Below, piece by piece: positions 789 through 45,600 of a stretch of 64,000 nucleotides of DNA. Made by a program: the position numbers and the translations under genes. The stretch's first letter is position 1. Every line of letters begins with the position of its first letter. The DNA is from an uncultured Oscillospiraceae bacterium (GTDB taxonomy: Bacteria > Bacillota > Clostridia > Oscillospirales > Ruminococcaceae): assembly GCA_964486925.1 (NCBI GenBank), contig CAZAOY010000002.1:14226-78225 (forward strand), given 5' to 3'. The notes beneath the pieces were generated by a model. The model had not been told where the DNA came from and searched no databases. It worked only from the letters and a program-made list of their open reading frames with translations.

Positions 789-2441
789 ATGATAGAGCGT
801 TTTCTTCCTCGTACCGAGTTTACCGACTATGAGGATTTTAAGGATAATTATAAGGTAGAGATTCCCGAAAACTTTAACTTTGGGTTTGATATAGTAGATG
901 AATGGGCAAAGCAGGATAAGGATAAGAAGGCCTTAGTTTGGTGCAACGACCACGGCGAGGAGCGAGAGTTTACCTTTAGTGAGATAAGTCTACTAAGCAA
1001 CAAGGCGGCAAATATGTTTGCAGACATGGGGGTAAAGAAGGGGACGGTGGTAATGCTAATCCTTCGTCGCCGTTATGAGTACTGGATCTGTGCTACAGCG
1101 CTTTGCAAGCTTGGGGCTATCCTAATCCCAGGGTCGCTACAGCTTACCAAAAAGGATATTGCCTATAGAGCAAAGGCCGCGGGGATTCATACCATCGTCT
1201 GCGTTCATGACGACTTTGTAATCTCGCAGGTAGAGCAGGCGAGGGATGAGGCTAGCGAGATAAAAAACTGCATGATAGTTGCGGGAGAGAGGGATGGATT
1301 TATCCAGTTTGACAAAAAGCTAGCAGGCTACAGCGAGGAGTTTTCCCGTCCTACAGGAGCGGACGCTACTACTAACGAGGATATAAGCCTAGTATACTTC
1401 ACCTCCGGCACTACCGGTATGCCGAAGATGGTAGCGCATAACTTTACCCACCCGCTTGGCCATATCGTAACCGCAAAGTATTGGCAGAGGGTACAGCCGG
1501 ACAAGCTTCATATGAGCGTTTCCGATTCAGGTTGGGCGAAGTTTGGTTGGGGTAAGATATACGGTCAGTGGATCTGCGGGGCGGTAATATTCTGTTACGA
1601 CATGGATAAATTCGTGCCAAAGCTACTGCTTGAAAAGCTGGAGAAATATAAGGTAACCACCTTCTGCGCGCCTCCTACCATGTTTAGATTTATGCTACAG
1701 GAGGACGTTAAGAGCTATGACCTATCCTCCATTGAGCACTGCGGGATTGCGGGAGAGCCGCTAAACCCAGAGGTGTTTAAGCAGTGGCATAACCTTACAG
1801 GACTAAAGCTGACAGAAGGGTTTGGACAGAGCGAATCCTCTGTAATTATCGCAAACTTCCCATGGTTTGAACCAATTCCCGGCTCAATGGGCAAGCCTTC
1901 ACCGCTATACAACATAACCTTGATTAATTCAGACGGCGAGGAGTGCGAGGATGGTGAGGAAGGCGAGATTGTGGTAATGGATATCGATAAGTACATGCCG
2001 ACAGGACTGTTCACCGAATACTTTAAGGATGAGGAGCTTACCCGCAAAAACCTACGTGGCAGATACTACAACACAGGGGATGTAGCATGGCGGGACAGTA
2101 ACGGTTACTACTGGTTTGTAGGACGTAATGACGATGTTATCAAGTGTTCAGGCTACCGTATCGGCCCGTTTGAGGTTGAGAGCGCATTACTTGAGCATAA
2201 ATCGGTGCTAGAGTGTGCAGTAACCGCCGCCCCTGACACTGTAAGAGGACAGGTTGTAAAGGCGACGGTGGTGTTAAAGGACGGCTATAGCTGCAGTCCG
2301 GAGCTAATAAAGGAGCTACAAACCCATGTTAAAAAGGTAACCGCGCCTTACAAATATCCACGGATAATTGAGTTTGTAACTGAACTTCCAAAGACTCTTG
2401 GCGGTAAGATAAAACGAGCGGAGATACGAAGCAAAAACTAA
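789..2441 (+). CDS. AMP-forming acyl-CoA synthetase/ligase (medium-chain/acetyl-CoA synthetase-like)
   Basis: 550 aa. AMP-binding core YFTSGTTGMPK, GEPLNPE, YNTGD, GRNDDVIKCSGYRIGPFEVE, and the terminal GKIKR lysine motif. RBS AAGGAG 12 nt upstream. Confidence 0.9.
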   Translation: MIERFLPRTEFTDYEDFKDNYKVEIPENFNFGFDIVDEWAKQDKDKKALVWCNDHGEEREFTFSEISLLSNKAANMFADMGVKKGTVVMLILRRRYEYWICATALCKLGAILIPGSLQLTKKDIAYRAKAAGIHTIVCVHDDFVISQVEQARDEASEIKNCMIVAGERDGFIQFDKKLAGYSEEFSRPTGADATTNEDISLVYFTSGTTGMPKMVAHNFTHPLGHIVTAKYWQRVQPDKLHMSVSDSGWAKFGWGKIYGQWICGAVIFCYDMDKFVPKLLLEKLEKYKVTTFCAPPTMFRFMLQEDVKSYDLSSIEHCGIAGEPLNPEVFKQWHNLTGLKLTEGFGQSESSVIIANFPWFEPIPGSMGKPSPLYNITLINSDGEECEDGEEGEIVVMDIDKYMPTGLFTEYFKDEELTRKNLRGRYYNTGDVAWRDSNGYYWFVGRNDDVIKCSGYRIGPFEVESALLEHKSVLECAVTAAPDTVRGQVVKATVVLKDGYSCSPELIKELQTHVKKVTAPYKYPRIIEFVTELPKTLGGKIKRAEIRSKN

Positions 2442-2458
2442 GATAAAGACTGGATATA

Positions 2459-2511
2459 AAAATGCACCATTAGATGTTTGATTTAATCAACATTTAATGG
2501 TGCATTTTTTA
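2459..2511. terminator. Bidirectional rho-independent terminator
   Basis: 18-bp stem AATGCACCATTAGATGTT / AACATTTAATGGTGCATT (one G-U), flanked by an A run on the left and a T run on the right. It sits between convergent genes. Confidence 0.8.
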
Positions 2512-2632
2512 TGTAGTTTTTGAGCTATTAATTCAGTATGCCTGTCCACCAAAAAGGTATAAGTTACCCTTTTAAGGTAGATACTAACCTTTGTAAACTC
2601 TTTAGTTTTAGTAAAATTTAATTTAAAGGATA

Positions 2633-2872
2633 CTACTGTTTGAGCTTTGAGTTAAAGTTATCAACAACCTCTTTAGAAAGGATCTCGATAAACTCATCCG
2701 GAGTTGGAACCTTTCCATCGGGGGATATTTTTTTGCGATATTCTATAGTTTCTGGGTCGTCATTGCTGTATGCGGCTTCGATAGCTTTTCTTATTCTGTC
2801 ATACACAATTGCTTCGTTTACTCCTTCTTTTTGTGCTATCTGTTTGATTGCTTTGCTGTACTTGCGTTTCAT
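2633..2872 (-). CDS. Small protein resembling the extreme C-terminal segment of the Spo0A DNA-binding domain
   Basis: 79 aa. AIVYDRIRKAIEAAYSNDDPETIEY...DGKVPTPDEFIEILSKEV parallels the Spo0A tail ...RVERAIRHAIEVAWSRGN...KAKPTNSEFIAMVADKL (recalled from memory). No receiver domain or main HTH is present. Confidence 0.45.
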   Translation of the reverse strand: MKRKYSKAIKQIAQKEGVNEAIVYDRIRKAIEAAYSNDDPETIEYRKKISPDGKVPTPDEFIEILSKEVVDNFNSKLKQ

Positions 2873-3047
2873 TGATTGATTGCTCCTTACGTTGTTGTAT
2901 TACCCAAATTTATGCACTAATATATTGCCTATATTTGGAGATAATACTAGTTTATCAAATACTTTATTGCATTTAACCCATATTCGGGTAGAATGTATAT
3001 TTTTTATTGTTACATTAGAAGTATCTATTATGAATTGGAGGGCTTGA

Positions 3048-3308
3048 ATGAATTATTCAGAAATTATTGTAATGCGTATAACCTCGTTATGCAGATCAAG
3101 AGATATTGCATATAATAAGCTAGCCACAATGAGTGGTCTTAATCAATCTACAATTGATAATATCGTTAGAGGAGTGACAAAAAATCCAAGAATTATCACA
3201 CTTCATCATATTGCCATAGGTTTTAGCATGACAATTTCGGAATTTTTAGACTTTCAAGAGTTAAACGAGTATTCGTTTGACGATGACATAATGAATGACA
3301 GCGAATAG
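3048..3308 (+). CDS. XRE/Cro-type helix-turn-helix protein
   Basis: 86 aa. IAYNKLATMSGLNQSTIDNIVRGVTKNPRIITLHHIAIGFSMTISEFLDF is a typical HTH_3/HTH_26-like pattern. Confidence 0.7.
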   Translation: MNYSEIIVMRITSLCRSRDIAYNKLATMSGLNQSTIDNIVRGVTKNPRIITLHHIAIGFSMTISEFLDFQELNEYSFDDDIMNDSE

Positions 3309-3390
3309 ATATTTTAACGCACAATCCATGTAGCGTTGCTACAGGAACTGAGTTTTGGGGTTTGCAGGGACGCTTTCTTTGCAAGCTCCT

Positions 3391-3636
3391 TTAATAATCA
3401 GTGGGTATCTCATCTGGTAAAGGTTCTCTAACATGTTTAACCATATCCTTTGAACAGGCTTTGAATCTAAAATAGTTCTGCTTGGCTTTAGCTAGGGTTA
3501 GCTTGTTGCAGTCGGAATACTCCTCTAGGTCATATACGCCATCATCCTCCCAAAAGCAGACGGGGCAGATGTAGTAATCTCCTGTAGGTTTTTGTAAGAA
3601 AGTTTTGTATCCGCAACATGGACAGTCGTATTTCAT
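3391..3636 (-). CDS. CPCC-family cysteine-rich protein
   Basis: 81 aa. The N-terminus MKYDCPCCGYKTF...YYICPVCFWEDDG matches the CPCC-family signature. Confidence 0.75.
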   Translation of the reverse strand: MKYDCPCCGYKTFLQKPTGDYYICPVCFWEDDGVYDLEEYSDCNKLTLAKAKQNYFRFKACSKDMVKHVREPLPDEIPTDY

Positions 3637-3682
3637 TGTTATTCTCCATAATAGTATTTTATAGTTATAGCCGATTAAGGTT

Positions 3683-4120
3683 TTATTGACGATTGTAGTA
3701 TTCTATTCCTTTTGTTGGCTTAAAATATGTTCTTATATATCCATCTGGTGAGAGGACTAAAAATTCGTTAGTTTTTACGTGATAAAAAAGGGTGTCATCA
3801 TCTTTACCCTGTTTACTTAAAATATCTGTACTTTGCTTGTAAGCCGCAATAAGCTTGTTGGCATTCTTAAGGTATTCTTCTTTAGTAATACTGCCAAACT
3901 GTTGGTGGTGTTTATTGTAATGGTTTTGATAAAGCTCTTTTGTCCGAAACTGGTATGTCTTTTTGGGGGCATTGCTTTTAGCGCTACTGGACTGCTTGCT
4001 TGACTGTGAAGTTACATCCGAAGGCTCCTGCTTTGCAAGGGAGTCGCACCCGAACGCAAAGAGGGCATAAAGCAGTATAACCAGTAATAACAGGTAATGT
4101 CGTATTTTGTTCATCTGCAT
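3683..4120 (-). CDS. Lipoprotein of unknown function
   Basis: 145 aa. Signal peptide plus lipobox LFAFGC, then a Ser/Lys-rich linker, then an ~85-aa C-terminal domain (YQNHYNKHHQQFGSITKEEYLKNANKLI...NEFLVLSPDGYIRTYFKP). Confidence 0.6.
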   Translation of the reverse strand: MQMNKIRHYLLLLVILLYALFAFGCDSLAKQEPSDVTSQSSKQSSSAKSNAPKKTYQFRTKELYQNHYNKHHQQFGSITKEEYLKNANKLIAAYKQSTDILSKQGKDDDTLFYHVKTNEFLVLSPDGYIRTYFKPTKGIEYYNRQ

Positions 4121-4389
4121 ATTCCTAACCTAATTTATTACGGCTTCTATATTCAATTAACCATAGACCATTACAGATTAGTGATAACCCTTCTTACCAA
4201 TAGAATTGTAGTAGGATATGTATTACTAAGCTATAAGCTAATAGTTAACGTACACAGTTGCCATTATAGTTATTATACGACAAAATGTTACATATGTCAA
4301 TAACTCTATTACATTTATTTAGATATTTGTCACAAGTAAGTCATGAGATATAGTGGAGTTATGGGCTACATTTAGCATAAATAATAAAA

Positions 4390-4490
4390 AAGGCTATGAC
4401 ATAATGGGACTTTGTATATACAAAAGTTCCCTACGATATATTGTGGATATATTGGTATAATACCACAATGTAAAGTTATGTCATAGCCTT
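4390..4490 (-). terminator. Nested hairpin structure, probable terminator of the 4535..4912 gene
   Basis: Perfect 15-bp outer stem AAGGCTATGACATAA (4390-4404) / TTATGTCATAGCCTT (4476-4490). It encloses two inner hairpins (GGGACTTTGTATATACAAAAGTTCCC and ATTGTGG...CCACAAT). On the minus strand the stem is followed by TTTTTATTATTT. Confidence 0.4.
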
Positions 4491-4534
4491 CAAAAGAAGG
4501 AGTTATTTATTAAATATGAGCCTTAAGCATTTAA

Positions 4535-4912
4535 CTAAAAAGAGATGTAATGTCCTGAATTGCTAAGGATAATAGATGAAACAAGTCCTTCTGCCTCTAG
4601 CGGTACCTTAGCGGTAAGCTTTGTACGTTTATAGGTAGAGTCGACCCCTCTAAACTCATCGGGTACTACATTTACAGGAAAGTATGCAGGGTAGGCAGCG
4701 GACGTACCCGATATTGTAGGGTTGTTTAGATTGTTTGTGGTTAAAAAGTAATCTGGTGCTAGATTTTTGCCTTCATTGTTAAATGCATTTCTTGATTTTT
4801 TGGATCTAAGAGATACCGATATAACATTCTCTACCTTATTTTTTATTGCAGTAGCGGCTCTTTCTGCCTGGTCTATATCATCAAAATTTGCGGTAATTGT
4901 AATATATTCCAT
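4535..4912 (-). CDS. Hypothetical protein
   Basis: 125-aa ORF with an upstream GGAA-rich RBS region. I recognised no motif. The competing + strand ORF 4767..4961 looks less protein-like. Confidence 0.4.
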   Translation of the reverse strand: MEYITITANFDDIDQAERAATAIKNKVENVISVSLRSKKSRNAFNNEGKNLAPDYFLTTNNLNNPTISGTSAAYPAYFPVNVVPDEFRGVDSTYKRTKLTAKVPLEAEGLVSSIILSNSGHYISF

Positions 4913-5040
4913 AAAATATTCCTTTCATTATTATCAAACTATCTGCTTATATTGCGTTTAAATATAAGCATCTGCGACTACTGTAAACAATAGTAGCTTT
5001 ATTAGTATTGACAATTTTGAAATAAATATTAACTTTTGAA

Positions 5041-5634
5041 TTAATTTACATGGATTTTTTCGCAGGAAAGGATGTAAAAACCTTTCTTTTTGTATAAAAT
5101 ATCAACGTAGCCAAAAATTTCTTGCAATCTTTTTATACTGCTGTTAGCCCCGTGTTTTTGTTGTATTACGATGTAAAGCTTGCCGTTATTATTAAGGTGG
5201 TGGTAGGACTGCTCGTACATATCATAGATAACCGCCTTGCCCGCATGGATTGGCGGGTTTAGCACGATACTGTCATAGCAACCTGTTATAGCCTTAAAGC
5301 TATCGCTATGGATAATGTCAGCATTTATACCGTTTCTTTCGCAGTTTTGGCTAGCGTATCTTAGCGCCCGCTCATTTACATCCGCCATAGACAGCGTTAG
5401 GTTATACACCTTAGCTAAAGCAATCCCGATTGCACCGTATCCGCAACCGAGGTCAAGCATACTGCCGCTTAGCGCAGGGAGATTTTTAATTAACAGATCG
5501 GAAGCATAGTCCACGTGGTCGGGGGAGAAGATACCCGAATCGGTGGTAAAGGTAAAGTCTTTCCCGCTAAAGCTGTATGAAACTGTTTGTATGTTGGATT
5601 TTAATGTATCGTCGGCGATAAAATAATGGCTCAT
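5041..5634 (-). CDS. Class I SAM-dependent methyltransferase (RsmC/RlmG small-domain type)
   Basis: 197 aa. SAM motif I LDLGCGYGAIG and catalytic-type motif VLNPPIHAG (NPPxH), as in rRNA N2-guanine methyltransferases. Confidence 0.85.
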   Translation of the reverse strand: MSHYFIADDTLKSNIQTVSYSFSGKDFTFTTDSGIFSPDHVDYASDLLIKNLPALSGSMLDLGCGYGAIGIALAKVYNLTLSMADVNERALRYASQNCERNGINADIIHSDSFKAITGCYDSIVLNPPIHAGKAVIYDMYEQSYHHLNNNGKLYIVIQQKHGANSSIKRLQEIFGYVDILYKKKGFYILSCEKIHVN

Positions 5635-30824: not shown

Positions 30825-30931
30825 TGTTTGGTTATGATGGATATAACACATCTATTATTCAAGATAGTTTTATTCAGGGCTTTGAATTTCGCATGTAGTG
30901 TTTACTTAAGTAAGGTGAAGTAGTGATACAA

Positions 30932-31465
30932 ATGAAAAAGATAATATTAGCATTATTTCTAACAGTAATAGTAATTTCTTCATTTAATGGATGTACAGTG
31001 GGTAGTGATAGAACAAGTATTATTAATAGTTATATTGGTTTAGTATTTACCTGCCCGAATGAACAGCTTATAAAGGCGGACGATGAGTTTATGAAGATAC
31101 TCTCGGGAGATATCAGCCCAAACGACGCTAAAACGAACCCAGTTACCGACGAACTAACGCTACTGTTCTCTGATTTAACTACGCAGGCACAGCTGGAAAA
31201 GATAATTAGCCTTGATGAGATTATGAAATATAACCAAACCGCTAGGGAGGAGGGTTTTTTGACCACTCCTAAAAATATCACCATTACAAAGGACAAAAAA
31301 GACAGTAACCTATATCAGGTGGAGTTTGACCTAGAGATAGTACAAGATGGAGAAACAAAAGTAATAAAGACAACCTCCTCGGTGCAGTTTGATAAGGATA
31401 GGATAAGCTATTTTAACATCCATACCAAAGAGGTGGTAAAGACATTGTTACGGCTAGATAAGTAG
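30932..31465 (+). CDS. Lipoprotein of unknown function
   Basis: ORF 30923..31465, with the likely start at ATG 30932. Signal peptide plus lipobox SSFNGC. Confidence 0.55.
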   Translation: MKKIILALFLTVIVISSFNGCTVGSDRTSIINSYIGLVFTCPNEQLIKADDEFMKILSGDISPNDAKTNPVTDELTLLFSDLTTQAQLEKIISLDEIMKYNQTAREEGFLTTPKNITITKDKKDSNLYQVEFDLEIVQDGETKVIKTTSSVQFDKDRISYFNIHTKEVVKTLLRLDK

Positions 31466-31548: not shown

Positions 31549-31616
31549 ATATACCTAAAGCTGGTGTTGTATGAAGATTTCATCTTAATACAACATTAGC
31601 TTTAGGTATATTTTTA
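31549..31616 (+). terminator. Long-stem rho-independent terminator
   Basis: ~30-bp imperfect hairpin ATATACCTAAAGCTGGTGTTGTATGAAGAT / ATCTTAATACAACATTAGCTTTAGGTATAT, followed by TTTTT. Confidence 0.75.
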
Positions 31617-31765
31617 TTAGGCAACATTTGTAAAGTCTGTTTGTATTTATTATGGTTTTATCTATTTTATGTTACAGTTTATATGAGTGTTAAACATGCC
31701 ATAAAAAGCTTTCCCTTGGCAAGGTGTTTAAATTATTAAATATTTATCTGTTCACTAAAATTTTA

Positions 31766-31794
31766 TTGATTTAATTGTCAAATTATGATATAAT
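31766..31794 (+). promoter_or_regulatory. Strong SigA-type promoter (extended -10)
   Basis: TTGATT (31766-31771), 17-nt spacer, TGaTATAAT (31786-31794). The -10 half is duplicated at 32155-32163, just upstream of ruvC. Confidence 0.6.
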
Positions 31795-31810
31795 AAACAT
31801 GTAAAAGGAA
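31783..31810 (+). repeat. 28-nt direct repeat, copy 1
   Basis: TTATGATATAATAAACATGTAAAAGGAA. It is 27/28 identical to 32152..32179. Confidence 0.9.
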
Positions 31811-31887
31811 TTGTAAATCTTCGATTTACATTATGTGTTTATTCTATCTTTAAAGGAAGAAAGCCTAGACGGCTATAAATTATTCAC

Positions 31888-32150
31888 TCAACTTTCGCAC
31901 CTCGTAAATACTGGCTGTAACATGGCAAAGCGGGTAAGTTTGACTATTTTTGTTTGCTTTTTTGCTTTAAATCTATGCCCTACACTATCGCAACCACCCT
32001 GTGGTTGCTTAGGGGCTTGCCGCCCTCTGCCCGCTTTTAAAGGAAAAGCCTGCGGGCGGGATATTACAATGAGGCTCTGCCTCAAACTCCGCTGGGGTAG
32101 AACCACCCCAGACCCCATTCTTTTAGAGATTACGAAGGTGCGAAAGTTGA
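31888..32150 (+). repeat. Structured GC-rich repeat element, copy 1 (MITE-like or ncRNA; unclassified)
   Basis: 263 nt. The ends TCAACTTTCGCACCTCGTAA ... TTACGAAGGTGCGAAAGTTGA form a ~20-bp terminal inverted repeat. Internal hairpins: GCAACCA-CCCTG-TGGTTGC, TGAGGC-TCT-GCCTCA, CTGGGGT-AGAACC-ACCCCAG. A second copy lies at 33447..33707 on the other strand. Confidence 0.85.
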
Positions 32151-32151
32151 T

Positions 32152-32179
32152 TTATGATATAATAAACACGTAAAAGGAA
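32152..32179 (+). repeat. 28-nt direct repeat, copy 2
   Basis: TTATGATATAATAAACACGTAAAAGGAA, immediately after repeat element copy 1 and 43 nt upstream of the ruvC ATG. Confidence 0.9.
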
Positions 32180-32221
32180 AAACCAAATAACCAAACAAAT
32201 AAATAAAAAGTGGTGCAATAG

Positions 32222-32719
32222 ATGAAGGTAGTAGGGATTGACCCTGGGTATGCGATAGTGGGGTATGGTGTGGTGGAGTATGTAAAGTCTAGGTTTGTGA
32301 CACTAGACTACGGCTCGGTGATAACCACTGCGGACACACCGTATGAAAGACGGCTTTTGACGATATATGGCGACCTGTGCGACCTGTTTATGATACATAA
32401 ACCCGATGCAGTAGCTATAGAGCGGCTTTTTTTTACCACAAACCAAAAGACCGCAATGGCTGTAGCGCAGGCAAGGGGGGTTATCATCCTTGCCGCTACC
32501 ATTAACAATATAAAGGTGTACGAATACACCCCGCTACAGGTTAAACAGTCGGTGGTTGGGTATGGGAAGGCGCAAAAACATCAGGTGCAGGAGATGACAA
32601 GGCGACTGCTAAACCTTAAGGAAGTGCCAAAACCCGATGATACGGCGGATGCGCTTGCGGTGGCGATCTGTCATGCCCATGGGGCGGGGTCGCTAATGCG
32701 GTATGCAGATGGAAGGTAA
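32222..32719 (+). CDS. ruvC: Crossover junction endodeoxyribonuclease RuvC
   Basis: 165 aa. VVGIDPGYAIVGYGVV (catalytic Asp), AIERLFF, and DDTADALAVAICHA at the C-terminus. Confidence 0.93.
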   Translation: MKVVGIDPGYAIVGYGVVEYVKSRFVTLDYGSVITTADTPYERRLLTIYGDLCDLFMIHKPDAVAIERLFFTTNQKTAMAVAQARGVIILAATINNIKVYEYTPLQVKQSVVGYGKAQKHQVQEMTRRLLNLKEVPKPDDTADALAVAICHAHGAGSLMRYADGR

Positions 32720-32804
32720 GTAATGCTATGCGTAATAAGCAAGCGTTGCTTGACACCTATGCAAAGCTACAGTAGGATAGTATAAGCGGTTGAAAGGATA
32801 GAGT

Positions 32805-33407
32805 ATGATATATAGTTTAAAGGGTGTGCTTGTGCATACCGAGATAGGGCTTGCGGTAATTGAATGCGGCGGGGTTGGGTATGGTGTAAGGACGTCACTG
32901 TCCACCCTTGGGGCGTTACCGAAGATTGGGGAGGTTGCTACCGTCTACACCTATATGAGTGTACGTGAGGACGCGGTGGAGCTGTTTGGATTTGCGGATA
33001 AAGAGGAGTTAAACTGCTTTAAAATGCTAATATCGGTATCGGGGGTAGGCCCTAAGGCGGGGATCTCGATACTGTCTGATCTCACTCCTCAAAAATTTGC
33101 GCTATGCGTGGCGACAGGGGATAGCAAGGCTCTTACAAAATGTCAAGGTATCGGGCTTAAAACCGCTAGTCGTATTGTACTGGAGTTAAAGGACAAGATA
33201 GCTAAAGAACAGATATCGGGCAAAAATGCAGTCTATGCCGATATCCCGCAGATTTCGTCAAACTCCGCAACCTCAGAAGCGATTAGCGCACTGGTGGTGT
33301 TAGGCTACTCACAAAGCGAAGCCGCAATGGCTATCGCTAAAGCAGAACCCGACGCAACGGTAGAGGATTTAATTCGATTAGGACTAAAACGTCTGGCGAT
33401 GAACTAG
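32805..33407 (+). CDS. ruvA: Holliday junction DNA helicase subunit RuvA
   Basis: 200 aa. MIYSLKG...GVGYGV OB domain, HhH motifs (VSGVGPKAGISIL, GIGLKTASRIVLEL), and C-terminal domain III (ALVVLGYSQSEA). Confidence 0.93.
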   Translation: MIYSLKGVLVHTEIGLAVIECGGVGYGVRTSLSTLGALPKIGEVATVYTYMSVREDAVELFGFADKEELNCFKMLISVSGVGPKAGISILSDLTPQKFALCVATGDSKALTKCQGIGLKTASRIVLELKDKIAKEQISGKNAVYADIPQISSNSATSEAISALVVLGYSQSEAAMAIAKAEPDATVEDLIRLGLKRLAMN

Positions 33408-33446
33408 CGTTAAACGAAACTAATATAAAAACAAAACTAACATAAA

Positions 33447-33707
33447 TCAACTGTCGCACCTGCGAAACCCTAAAAAAATGGGGTCTGGGGTGGTTCTACC
33501 CCAGCGGAGTTTGAGGCAGAGCCTCATTATAATCACCCGCCCGCAGGCGTACCTATAAAAGCGGGTAGAGGGCAGCAAGCCCCTAAGCAACCACAGGGTG
33601 GCTGCGATAGTGTGGGGCATGAATTTGAAGAAAAAAACAAACTGAAAATAGTCAAACTTGCCTGCTTTGCCATTTTACAGCCAGTATTTGCGGGGTGCGA
33701 AAGTTGA
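33447..33707 (-). repeat. Structured GC-rich repeat element, copy 2 (inverted relative to copy 1)
   Basis: The reverse complement aligns end to end with 31888..32150. It has the same termini (TCAACTTTCGCACC...GGTGCGACAGTTGA) and the same three hairpins. It is flanked by the 11-nt direct repeat ACAAAACTAAC (33431-33441 and 33711-33721). Confidence 0.85.
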
Positions 33708-33909
33708 GTAACAAAACTAACCCAGTCTGGTGGTTTAAACATAGTCAGCTGCATATCTGGAACGCATACAATGAGTTCCCTATATTGGTTACGTTCCTAC
33801 ATTAGTTTCATTGTTAAATTGGTTTCATTTATTCGATCTATCACATACATACAAAACATTCAGACTTATCCATATAATGGCACAGCTAGCGAAAGATGAG
33901 GGTACTATA

Positions 33910-34959
33910 ATGCTGCAATCCGGCAAAGATTTTGATTTTGAGAATAGACTAGATGACAGGGTAACTACCCCCGAGTTTGGATCGGAGGATGCTCTTATTG
34001 AGTTCTCCCTTCGTCCTAAAACGCTAGGCGAGTATATAGGGCAGGAGAAGGCTAAGGAGAATCTTTCCATCTTTATCGAGGCGGCAAAGGGTAGGGGAGA
34101 ACCACTTGACCATGTTCTGCTCTACGGCCCTCCCGGGCTTGGTAAGACCACGTTGTCAAACATTATTGCAAACGAAATGAACGTTAACATAAAGATTACC
34201 TCAGGGCCTGCTATCGAAAAGCCGGGGGATCTAGCGGCACTGCTCTCTAACCTTAGCAGCGGGGATATCCTGTTTATCGATGAGATACATCGGCTCTCCC
34301 GCTCGGTTGAGGAGGTTTTATACCCCGCTATGGAGGACTTTGCGCTTGATATCATGATAGGCAAAGGCCCTTCGGCACGTTCTATTAGGATAGACCTACC
34401 TAAGTTTACCCTAGTTGGGGCGACTACAAGGGCGGGACAGCTAACCACCCCGCTTAGGGATAGGTTTGGGGTAATACTACGGCTTGAGCTTTACAACAAA
34501 GAGGAGCTTGCGACTATAATCCAAAGGAGCGCTAACATACTGGAGATACCATGTAACCATGGGGGTGCGCTAGAGCTTGCAATTCGCTCAAGGGGTACTC
34601 CACGTATCGCAAACCGCCTGCTAAAGCGGGTGAGGGACTTTGCGCAGGTTTTGGGGGATGGTACTATCACCGACAAGATCGTGGATGTAGCGCTAAGTAA
34701 GCTTGAGATTGACGGACTGGGACTGGACAACATCGACCGACGGATGTTAGACTGTATTATTAAGATGTATGGCGGCGGCCCTGTCGGACTTGATACCCTT
34801 GCGGCGGCGCTTGGTGAGGAGGCTATCACGCTGGAGGATGTCTATGAGCCGTATCTAATGCAGTTAGGTTTTCTAAGCCGAACCCCACGAGGACGGTGTG
34901 TAACACAGCTTGCCTACAAGCACCTAGGTTTGGCGATCCCTGGACAGCAGACGTTGTAA
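33910..34959 (+). CDS. ruvB: Holliday junction DNA helicase RuvB
   Basis: ORF 33811..34959, with the likely start at ATG 33910, after [18 protein letters not shown], Walker [10 protein letters not shown], Walker [10 protein letters not shown], sensor/arginine finger motifs, and the C-terminal wHTH. Confidence 0.95.

Positions 34960-44109: not shown

Positions 44110-45600
<1,491 letters not shown>

Follow-up and report, generated by a model that had tools for sequence, protein, structure and literature searches.

The 64,000-nucleotide (nt) stretch analyzed here, hereafter the window, comes from contig CAZAOY010000002.1 of an uncultured Oscillospiraceae bacterium and carries a ruv locus that is interrupted by two copies of a repeat element in inverted orientation. 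The three genes lie on the + strand: ruvC (32222-32719; Pfam RuvC, 5e-52), ruvA (32805-33407; Pfam RuvA_N, HHH_5, and RuvA_C), and ruvB (33910..34959; assigned by Pfam), whose true start is at 33910, with an N terminus matching that of its relative on the Logan contig L022. Copy 1 of the element (31886..32155, + strand, 270 nt) sits between the conserved ruvC promoter and ruvC, and copy 2 (33442..33709, - strand, 268 nt) sits inverted in the ruvA-ruvB spacer, which measures 502 nt with the start at 33910. Together the copies bracket a 1.3-kb ruvC-ruvA segment (32222..33407, + strand), the two inverted 268-bp repeats being 1.29 kb apart. The best sigma-70-type promoter of the region (31766..31794, + strand; TTGATT and TATAAT with a 17-nt spacer and a TG) is directed into copy 1 and ruvC and has a conserved counterpart in L022.

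By BLASTN against the window, 31888-32150 aligns with 33707-33447 (264 columns, 89.0% of them identical; E 3e-93), and apart from this inverted pair nothing longer than about 27 nt in the window matches 31888-32150. Repeat finders likewise returned the pair as the sole long repeat of the 64 kb, bar a 9-nt periodic array in a collagen-like gene. The copies differ by 29 substitutions and 4 indel columns, concentrated at 31951-31974, at 32040-32047, and near the right end, and the longest run identical between them spans 52 nt (32068-32119), a length that was reached in 381 of 20000 shuffles (p ~0.02). The G+C content is 53-58% in the element core and 20-35% in the flanking spacers. An earlier note on this DNA had proposed an inverted repeat pair forming GC-rich islands in AT-rich spacers, with its differences clustered in two internal segments; the pair is real, as are the islands and both clusters, the homology runs slightly beyond the ends that the note had placed, and the right end is an additional site of divergence.

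The arrangement was also recovered in part from a second source. The outer-left junction of copy 1 is present in an independent Logan assembly (L035, 99.8% identity), and another contig of the Logan set, L001, at 99.4% identity, extends from ruvC to copy 2, where it ends within the 52-nt block that copy 2 has in common with copy 1. Both are short contigs from SRR10912415, and both end inside the repeats.

The closest RuvA relatives are encoded on two Logan contigs, L021 and L022, at 79% identity. Both keep the order ruvC-ruvA-ruvB with ruvA-ruvB spacers of only 64 and 34 nt, in keeping with the expectation that ruvA and ruvB are normally adjacent, and L021 also retains the downstream genes, among them pgm, a methyltransferase gene, energy-coupling factor (ECF) transporter genes, and truA. 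Neither BLASTN nor a covariance model of an internal module of the element (described below) detected any similarity to the element at the orthologous sites of L021 and L022. Both copies have inserted where these relatives have empty sites, and the insertions are lineage-specific. Beyond the element, about 190 nt of the ruvA-ruvB spacer (33722-33909) also lacks a counterpart in the closest relatives, and this segment contains a TATAAT at 33873-33878, just upstream of ruvB.

Termini of the element and the IS4 family

The element ends in terminal inverted repeats of 14-16 bp that read (AC)TCAACTTTCGCAC(C). When the window was scanned for TCAACTTTCGCACC with at most one mismatch, four occurrences were found, and these are exactly the four ends of the two copies; shuffled sequences gave a mean of 0.27 occurrences and never four. 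In copy 1 the left repeat lies at 31886..31901 (+ strand, ACTCAACTTTCGCACC) and matches the left end of a Geobacillus insertion sequence (IS; L040) at 14/14 positions and the IS ends on an Aliarcobacter plasmid (L036) at 13/14. The right repeat of copy 1 (32137..32152, - strand) reads GGTGCGAAAGTTGATT on the + strand and has the tip GATT, compared with GAGT in the clade to which these IS elements belong. In copy 2, named in the orientation of the element, the left repeat occupies 33694..33709 (- strand; GGTGCGAAAGTTGAGT on the + strand) and the right repeat 33445..33460 (+ strand; AATCAACTGTCGCACC on the + strand).

The connection to these IS elements came from a search of a plasmid collection with a 281-nt unit, for which the only BLASTN match was one of 27/30 nt (E 0.8) to two Aliarcobacter/Arcobacter plasmids. 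This match is the exact left terminus of a 1482-bp IS (L036 2507-3988), the ends of which are ACTCAACTTTCGCACA and TGTGCGAAAGTTGAGT. The product of this IS is a DDE transposase of 452 aa (Pfam DDE_5 and DDE_Tnp_1) that scores 269 bits, versus a cutoff of 250, against NCBIfam NF049925, "IS4 family transposase." A tblastn search located transposases akin to this one on other plasmids, and some were checked against NCBIfam. Those of the Geobacillus IS (599 bits; end TCAACTTTCGCACCT), the Selenomonas IS (557 bits; end ACTCAAACTTCGCA), and the A. cryaerophilus IS (286 bits; end ACTTAACTTTCGCAC) match NF049925, and the Alicyclobacillus IS, which was not scored, has the end ACTCAACTTTCGCAG. Matching ends were found on NF049925-clade elements of six plasmids from five genera. 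The four ends in the window agree with those of the clade at 13-14 of 14 positions, tip to tip, in the same register and the same inward orientation, and the left ends stay similar to the Aliarcobacter IS as far as GTAAAT (20/24 positions). A lone 27/30 match could be due to chance, but we would not expect chance to place it on both IS termini, in the correct orientation and register, and again in four further genera of the clade; because it does fall there, we reject that explanation.

In the Aliarcobacter/Arcobacter plasmids L036 (NZ_CP104333.1) and L038 (CP146529.1), two related IS4-clade elements (ends ACTCAAC... and ACTTAAC...) are present in several copies, some of which are adjacent or nested and beside a Tn3-family transposase, and tblastn gave matches at five places in one 83-kb plasmid. 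Other assignments of the termini were considered and abandoned. The likeness of GAAGGTGCGAA to an end of Escherichia coli IS5 was dropped, because it is oriented inside-out and the true match lies with the IS4 clade, and the sequence fits none of dif/Xer sites, attC sites, group II intron ends, CRISPR repeats, or Tn3 ends.

We conclude that the pair very probably represents two copies of a MITE (miniature inverted-repeat transposable element) that is nonautonomous and derived from the IS4 family, a new family of a known kind. Well known bacterial MITEs include the Correia elements of Neisseria, the RUP and BOX elements of pneumococcus, and, in the Bacillus cereus group, bcr1 and the MIC231 cassettes that derive from IS231. 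The definition of a prokaryotic MITE used here is that given in section 2.1 of PMC10969869. Under this definition a MITE is shorter than 500 bp, and the copies are 270 and 268 bp long; its terminal inverted repeats are about 4-30 bp, and those of the element are 14-16 bp; it has no transposase or coding capacity of its own, and none was found in either copy; and its ends are related to those of an autonomous IS, here the NF049925-clade elements. Insertion sites in intergenic DNA that is AT-rich and the high predicted stability of the fold also agree with the definition, and bacterial MITEs (PMC10969869) and the window element are further alike in their cotranscription with neighboring genes, which is probable for the window element, and in deriving from a recognizable IS family. 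Unlike bacterial MITEs in general, the window element is GC-rich, is documented in two copies, has atypical flanking duplications, and contains an unrelated small repeat module.

A similar comparison can be made with the autonomous elements. IS elements of NF049925 (transpos_IS4_4), for example those of Aliarcobacter butzleri (NZ_CP104333.1) and Geobacillus sp. 12AMOR1 (CP011833.1), have the same terminal inverted repeats, (AC)TCAACTTTCGCAC, and like the window elements insert into AT-rich DNA. They are, however, about 1.5 kb long and carry a transposase, whereas the window elements are 270 bp long, lack a transposase, and have an unrelated interior; moreover, the sampled IS elements are flanked by 5-bp target duplications, and the window copies are not. 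No open reading frame (ORF) that matches the DDE transposase of the clade is present in the element or in the window. Indeed, Pfam scans of 49 ORFs in the 64-kb window, nearly all of those of at least 150 aa, revealed no transposase, integrase, reverse transcriptase, or recombinase. Because it is without a transposase, the element is a derivative of the IS4 clade and not a member of an IS family. The earlier note had listed a MITE-like element as one of two candidates and had added that an IS-end match to a known family would take away the novelty of the pair. The agreement of the termini with the inverted repeats of full-length NF049925-clade elements supports that candidate and supplies just such a match.

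On this reading, the terminal inverted repeats would be the ends at which an IS4-family DDE transposase of the NF049925 clade binds and cleaves, and the element would have been moved in trans by a transposase encoded elsewhere, outside the window. In an Oscillospiraceae-like lineage, one copy would have entered the promoter or leader region of ruvC and one the ruvA-ruvB spacer, in opposite orientations. As the ruv transcription unit includes both copies, their passive transcription into highly structured RNA is probable, and any effects on ruv expression, or any RecA-mediated inversion of ruvCA, would be side effects.

Flanking duplications and the origin of copy 2

The full-length relatives give a clear picture of what insertion by this clade leaves behind. 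In 7 of 7 cases with readable flanks, a perfect 5-bp AT-rich target duplication (TATTA, TATTA, TATTT, AAATA, AAATA, TTAAA, and CTAAT) abuts the ACTCAAC tips, and a more distant Limosilactobacillus element has an 8-bp duplication. The flanks of the window copies are organized differently. In MITEs, direct repeats of the target site are expected on either side, at least where copies are young. Copy 2 is flanked by a 12-bp direct repeat, AACAAAACTAAC, at 33430..33441 and, in the same sequence, at 33710..33721; among 20000 shuffles of the flanks, one gave a boundary repeat of 11 nt or more (p ~1e-4). Near copy 1 there is a 28-bp direct repeat, the upstream copy of which (31783..31810, + strand, TTATGATATAATAAACATGTAAAAGGAA) holds the extended -10 of the ruvC promoter and the downstream copy of which (32152..32179, + strand, 27/28 identical) lies directly against copy 1 at its right end, about 45 nt upstream of ruvC. 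The sequence ATTTATGATATAATA in the downstream copy is identical to the promoter region of L022 (2371-2385).

Several observations count against the assignment of the pair as an IS4-derived MITE. The flanks at the canonical tips do not match (TATTC/TATGA for copy 1 and TTGTT/TATGT for copy 2), such that the 5-bp duplication seen in the relatives is missing. The 12-bp repeat touches the left tip of copy 2 exactly and is 3 nt (TAT) off its right tip, and the upstream copy of the 28-bp repeat lies 75 nt from the left tip of copy 1. The right tip is mutated in both copies, reading GATT and not GAGT. The core is GC-rich (53-58%), and MITEs are typically AT-rich. Only two copies, at two sites, were found, with no more in the public collections scanned, and a MITE would be expected in multiple dispersed copies or with polymorphic insertion. 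Finally, the interior of the element has no similarity to the sampled IS elements; an unrelated interior is usual when the cognate IS is unsampled.

The 75-nt segment between the upstream 28-bp repeat and copy 1 holds a partial inverted copy of that repeat (31831-31853), and the -10 region of the ruvC promoter is present three times; a long hairpin is formed in the predicted fold by the upstream direct copy and the inverted one. A triple -10 region does not fit a simple target duplication caused by the element.

The bases adjoining the right tip bear on how copy 2 arose. Beyond this tip both copies share TTTAT(G), which in copy 1 continues as ATTTATGATATAAT, identical to the L022 promoter. As a tentative and simplest reading, copy 1 could be the parent, with copy 2 made from it together with a few flanking bases and a shifted right end, possibly by a short local hop, as the shared bases past the right tip suggest. 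It is rather doubtful, if conceivable, that copy 2 did not arise by canonical transposition at all, either through repair or template-switch copying from copy 1 or through aberrant use of a surrogate end. The shared TTTAT(G), which in copy 1 belongs to ancestral ruvC promoter sequence as judged from L022, would be accounted for in this way, as would duplications of 12 and 28 bp in place of the 5 bp of the clade and a mutated right tip in both copies. However, no gap separates the 12-bp repeat from the canonical left tip, the 3-5 nt in common have the AT richness of the targets that the clade prefers (TATTA and TATTT) and could coincide by accident, and the order of events has no third copy to polarize it.

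Possible RNA gene, exaptation, or inversion

The second candidate of the earlier note was a multicopy family of structured small RNA (sRNA) genes with a defined orientation. Such a family would explain the very stable predicted fold, with a minimum free energy of -107.7 kcal/mol (z -7.2) in the + sense and -101.2 kcal/mol (z -5.8) in the - sense. The predicted folds contain the three hairpins and the closing stem of about 20 bp that the note had listed, and the hairpins are kept in both copies. The note had also drawn attention to one A-to-G change within a hairpin that maintains pairing as G-U only in the + sense. This is correct for that single base pair but does not discriminate between the strands: in a comparison of the two sequences by RNAalifold, one-sided compatible changes number five in the + sense and six in the - sense, such that the substitutions fit the - sense equally well, and compensatory double changes are absent on either strand. 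The perfect closing stem, moreover, coincides with the IS4-family transposase ends, which counts strongly against an RNA gene. Searches for a known family point the same way. Rfam 15 at gathering thresholds gave no match in the whole window, and at E up to 10 the region 31700-33900 gave only chance-level small nucleolar RNA or sRNA matches (E at least 1.6), none of which explains the elements, in line with the inability of the earlier note to place them among known RNAs. ARAGORN found no transfer RNA (tRNA) or transfer-messenger RNA genes.

Neither copy was found to have a promoter or terminator of its own, the ruvC promoter being the sole strong one, and the copies are oppositely oriented inside one operon. 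A relative of the whole unit was not found in the genome, metagenome, viral, plasmid, and phage collections scanned; the genome, metagenome, and viral scans used conserved-block, end-plus-gap, and hairpin-plus-module patterns and returned only short module matches or chance matches in coding sequence. Nor does the element appear to encode protein. The ORFs that read through the two copies lie in different frames and have no Pfam match, and nothing like the 112-aa read-through ORF, or the translation of any of 12 frames, occurs in a collection of 5.8 billion protein sequences. With no Rfam match, no promoter or terminator of its own, no strand signal, and no relative of the whole unit, the sRNA candidate finds no support, and we consider it barely credible.

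A MITE could also have been exapted after insertion, with the copies or the internal module now under selection for an action on the ruv operon. Possible actions are that of an attenuator or stabilizer in the ruvC leader, or long-range pairing of the sense and antisense copies into a duplex of about 265 bp on the polycistronic RNA, which would place ruvCA in a loop for processing by RNase III. Within the transcription unit, both copies follow the conserved promoter at 31766-31794, and an extended -10 is duplicated directly downstream of copy 1, as if restoring transcription of ruvC. The 52-nt block containing the module is identical though the copies differ by 11% (p ~0.02). In addition, copy 2 folds at -100.1 kcal/mol, whereas copy 1 carrying 29 random substitutions folds at a mean of -85.3 kcal/mol (standard deviation 8.2), with 19 of 500 simulated sequences as low. 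This preservation signal is weak, however, and no stronger on one strand than on the other (in the - sense, 37 of 500 simulated sequences were as low); compensatory double changes are absent, and the relatives do without the elements. Structure is mildly preserved between the copies without strand preference, and in these models DNA and RNA hairpins fit equally. Exaptation is quite improbable in our estimation. If the insertions do affect ruv, transcription of ruvC from the upstream promoter may be attenuated, with the duplicated extended -10 offsetting the loss, and the sense and antisense copies may pair on one mRNA.

Finally, the two copies could serve as arms between which ruvCA is inverted, forming a DNA switch worked by homologous recombination or by a dedicated invertase. 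Inverted repeats of 268 bp that are 1.29 kb apart and include a 52-nt identical block are enough for RecA-dependent exchange, and the duplicated extended -10 falls within the would-be invertible segment, beside ruvC. Against a switch, no invertase or other site-specific recombinase of the kind found near invertons was detected in the 64 kb, and both arm length and cargo size greatly exceed those of known invertons. Two assemblies have the same arrangement, but their contigs stop inside the repeats and are blind to recombinant arms. Such a switch is very improbable; RecA-mediated inversion of ruvCA between the copies might take place. An IS4-derived MITE, with any such consequences as by-products of insertion, is the reading that we retain.

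The internal module and the wider window

Inside the element is a two-hairpin module of 49 nt, which lies within the 52-nt identical block. In copy 1 (32068..32116, + strand) it consists of ATGAGGCTCTGCCTCA, the linker AACTCCG, the hairpin CTGGGGT-AGAACC-ACCCCAG, and ACCCC, and scores 63.6 bits (E 1.6e-13) with covariance model R1; the same module in copy 2 (33480..33528, - strand) is also matched by the model. The module core, GAGGCNNNGCCTCAAACTCCGC, is the sole part of the element that was found elsewhere. It occurs in metagenome-assembled genomes (MAGs) of Oligoflexus, Acetobacteraceae, Roseococcus, Christensenellaceae, and Synergistaceae, in metagenome contigs, in a human-fecal phage contig (the one match of a BLASTN search against phages), and in IMG/VR contigs. 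The module loci outside the window are L002-L007, L009, L014, L018, L020, L023, L025, L026, L030, and L034. Further pattern matches (L008, L011, L015, L024, L027-L029, and L031-L033) were set aside as chance matches inside a phage gene.

True instances share a constant hairpin, (A/T)TGAGGC-TCY-GCCTCA(A), also written (A/T)TGAGGCTCYGCCTCA(A), followed by the linker ACTCCG, a perfect hairpin of unrelated sequence, and ACC(C). A covariance model built from 15 instances gave 26 matches (E at most 2e-4) in about 200 kb of fetched loci; in the window it matched only the two modules within the elements, and in the close relatives it matched nothing. Of the 10 pairs in helix 2, 8 show changes on both sides, and the share of paired cells is 94%, compared with about 54% once the partners are shifted by one column, in an alignment that was fitted to the model and so favors structure somewhat. 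A count of G-T and A-C mismatches, at 9 and 11, gave no strand signal. After a gene in four Acetobacteraceae, the module is found at an orthologous site where the 29-nt core is 100% conserved and the neighboring coding DNA 45-80%.

The module occurs alone or as inverted pairs that bound small units forming a larger hairpin, such as a unit of about 228 nt in L030 (4998-5225) and units of about 130 nt, three in L026 and one in L018. No transposase, RAYT-like (REP-associated tyrosine transposase) or other, was found beside the module instances, and the neighboring ORFs at seven modules are housekeeping or phage genes. Rfam found nothing relevant on the loci that carry the module, and a literature search for its sequence returned only unrelated primer matches. 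A leader peptide (MRLCLKLR...) was considered and rejected, as the frame breaks or stops in other instances (with TGA in L020) and lacks a Shine-Dalgarno sequence.

In being a short, dispersed, GC-rich palindromic unit of intergenic DNA that occurs alone or as inverted pairs, the module resembles repetitive extragenic palindromic sequences (REPs), bacterial interspersed mosaic elements (BIMEs), and the REP doublets known as REPINs. REPs are species-specific, whereas the 24-29-nt core of the module is identical across phyla and phage contigs. The module also differs from REPs, BIMEs, and REPINs in that a constant hairpin is followed by a covarying hairpin of variable sequence, and in that no RAYT-like gene was found beside the instances. 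We read the module as a second small repeat, REP/REPIN-like or MITE-end-like, that is nested in or was captured by the IS4-derived element. It is unlikely, but worth entertaining, that the module is an undescribed functional nucleic acid motif, spread horizontally and partly by phages, and not just another MITE end; it could then be, for example, a portable protein-binding, recombination, or RNA-processing site.

Some loci show variants of the module. Sequences of the form GGGGCTC(C/T)GCCTCAAACTCCGCTGG...CCAGAC(C/T)CC score 36-51 bits with the covariance model and occur at 719-773 of L012, 7852-7906 of L016, and 235-289 of L017, metagenome contigs that look eukaryote-like and have G/A-rich low-complexity sequence nearby. 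In L007 (265-364; metagenome contig Ga0123355), the second hairpin is replaced or interrupted by another long perfect hairpin, which gave chance microRNA-type Rfam matches. The replacement suggests nesting of small repeats.

The gene products of the window are ordinary chromosomal ones of a spore-forming, Clostridium-like organism, including those of the spoIIIA operon, uvrA, uvrC, prfA, an ECF transporter, and sugar utilization genes; the proteins fall in singleton 90% clusters, and the best named RuvA relatives, at 60-64% identity, are from Oscillospiraceae. Upstream of copy 1, a 180-aa ORF (30923-31465) encodes a lipoprotein-like product that belongs to no family, and the idea that the element is tied to this ORF was rejected on account of that product. 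Downstream of the ORF, at 31549-31611, is an almost perfect AT-rich palindrome in which a 3-nt loop separates 30-nt arms that are 90% complementary; L035 has it as well, and it probably represents a terminator-like hairpin. The 9-nt array mentioned above (about 44410-45200) derives from a gene for a collagen-triple-helix-repeat protein (44140-45600; Pfam Collagen, 1e-32). A region of about 2.6 kb (2441-5041) contains only short ORFs (less than 146 aa) and has no Rfam or tRNA match.

Overall, what appeared to be a novel structured RNA is, on the reading that we favor, a transposon relic of a recognizable IS4 lineage, and as such it matters little. For those annotating MAGs of gut Clostridia there is a practical point, in that assemblies break inside the element and spurious ORFs cross it. 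For the ruv locus, the pair illustrates that MITE insertion can enlarge a compact ruvCAB operon, with a ruvA-ruvB spacer of 502 nt compared with 34-64 nt in the closest relatives, and can leave 268-bp inverted repeats around two recombination genes. The internal module is the only part that might lead to something new: a short motif, present across phyla and in phages, with a covarying hairpin and no Rfam family.

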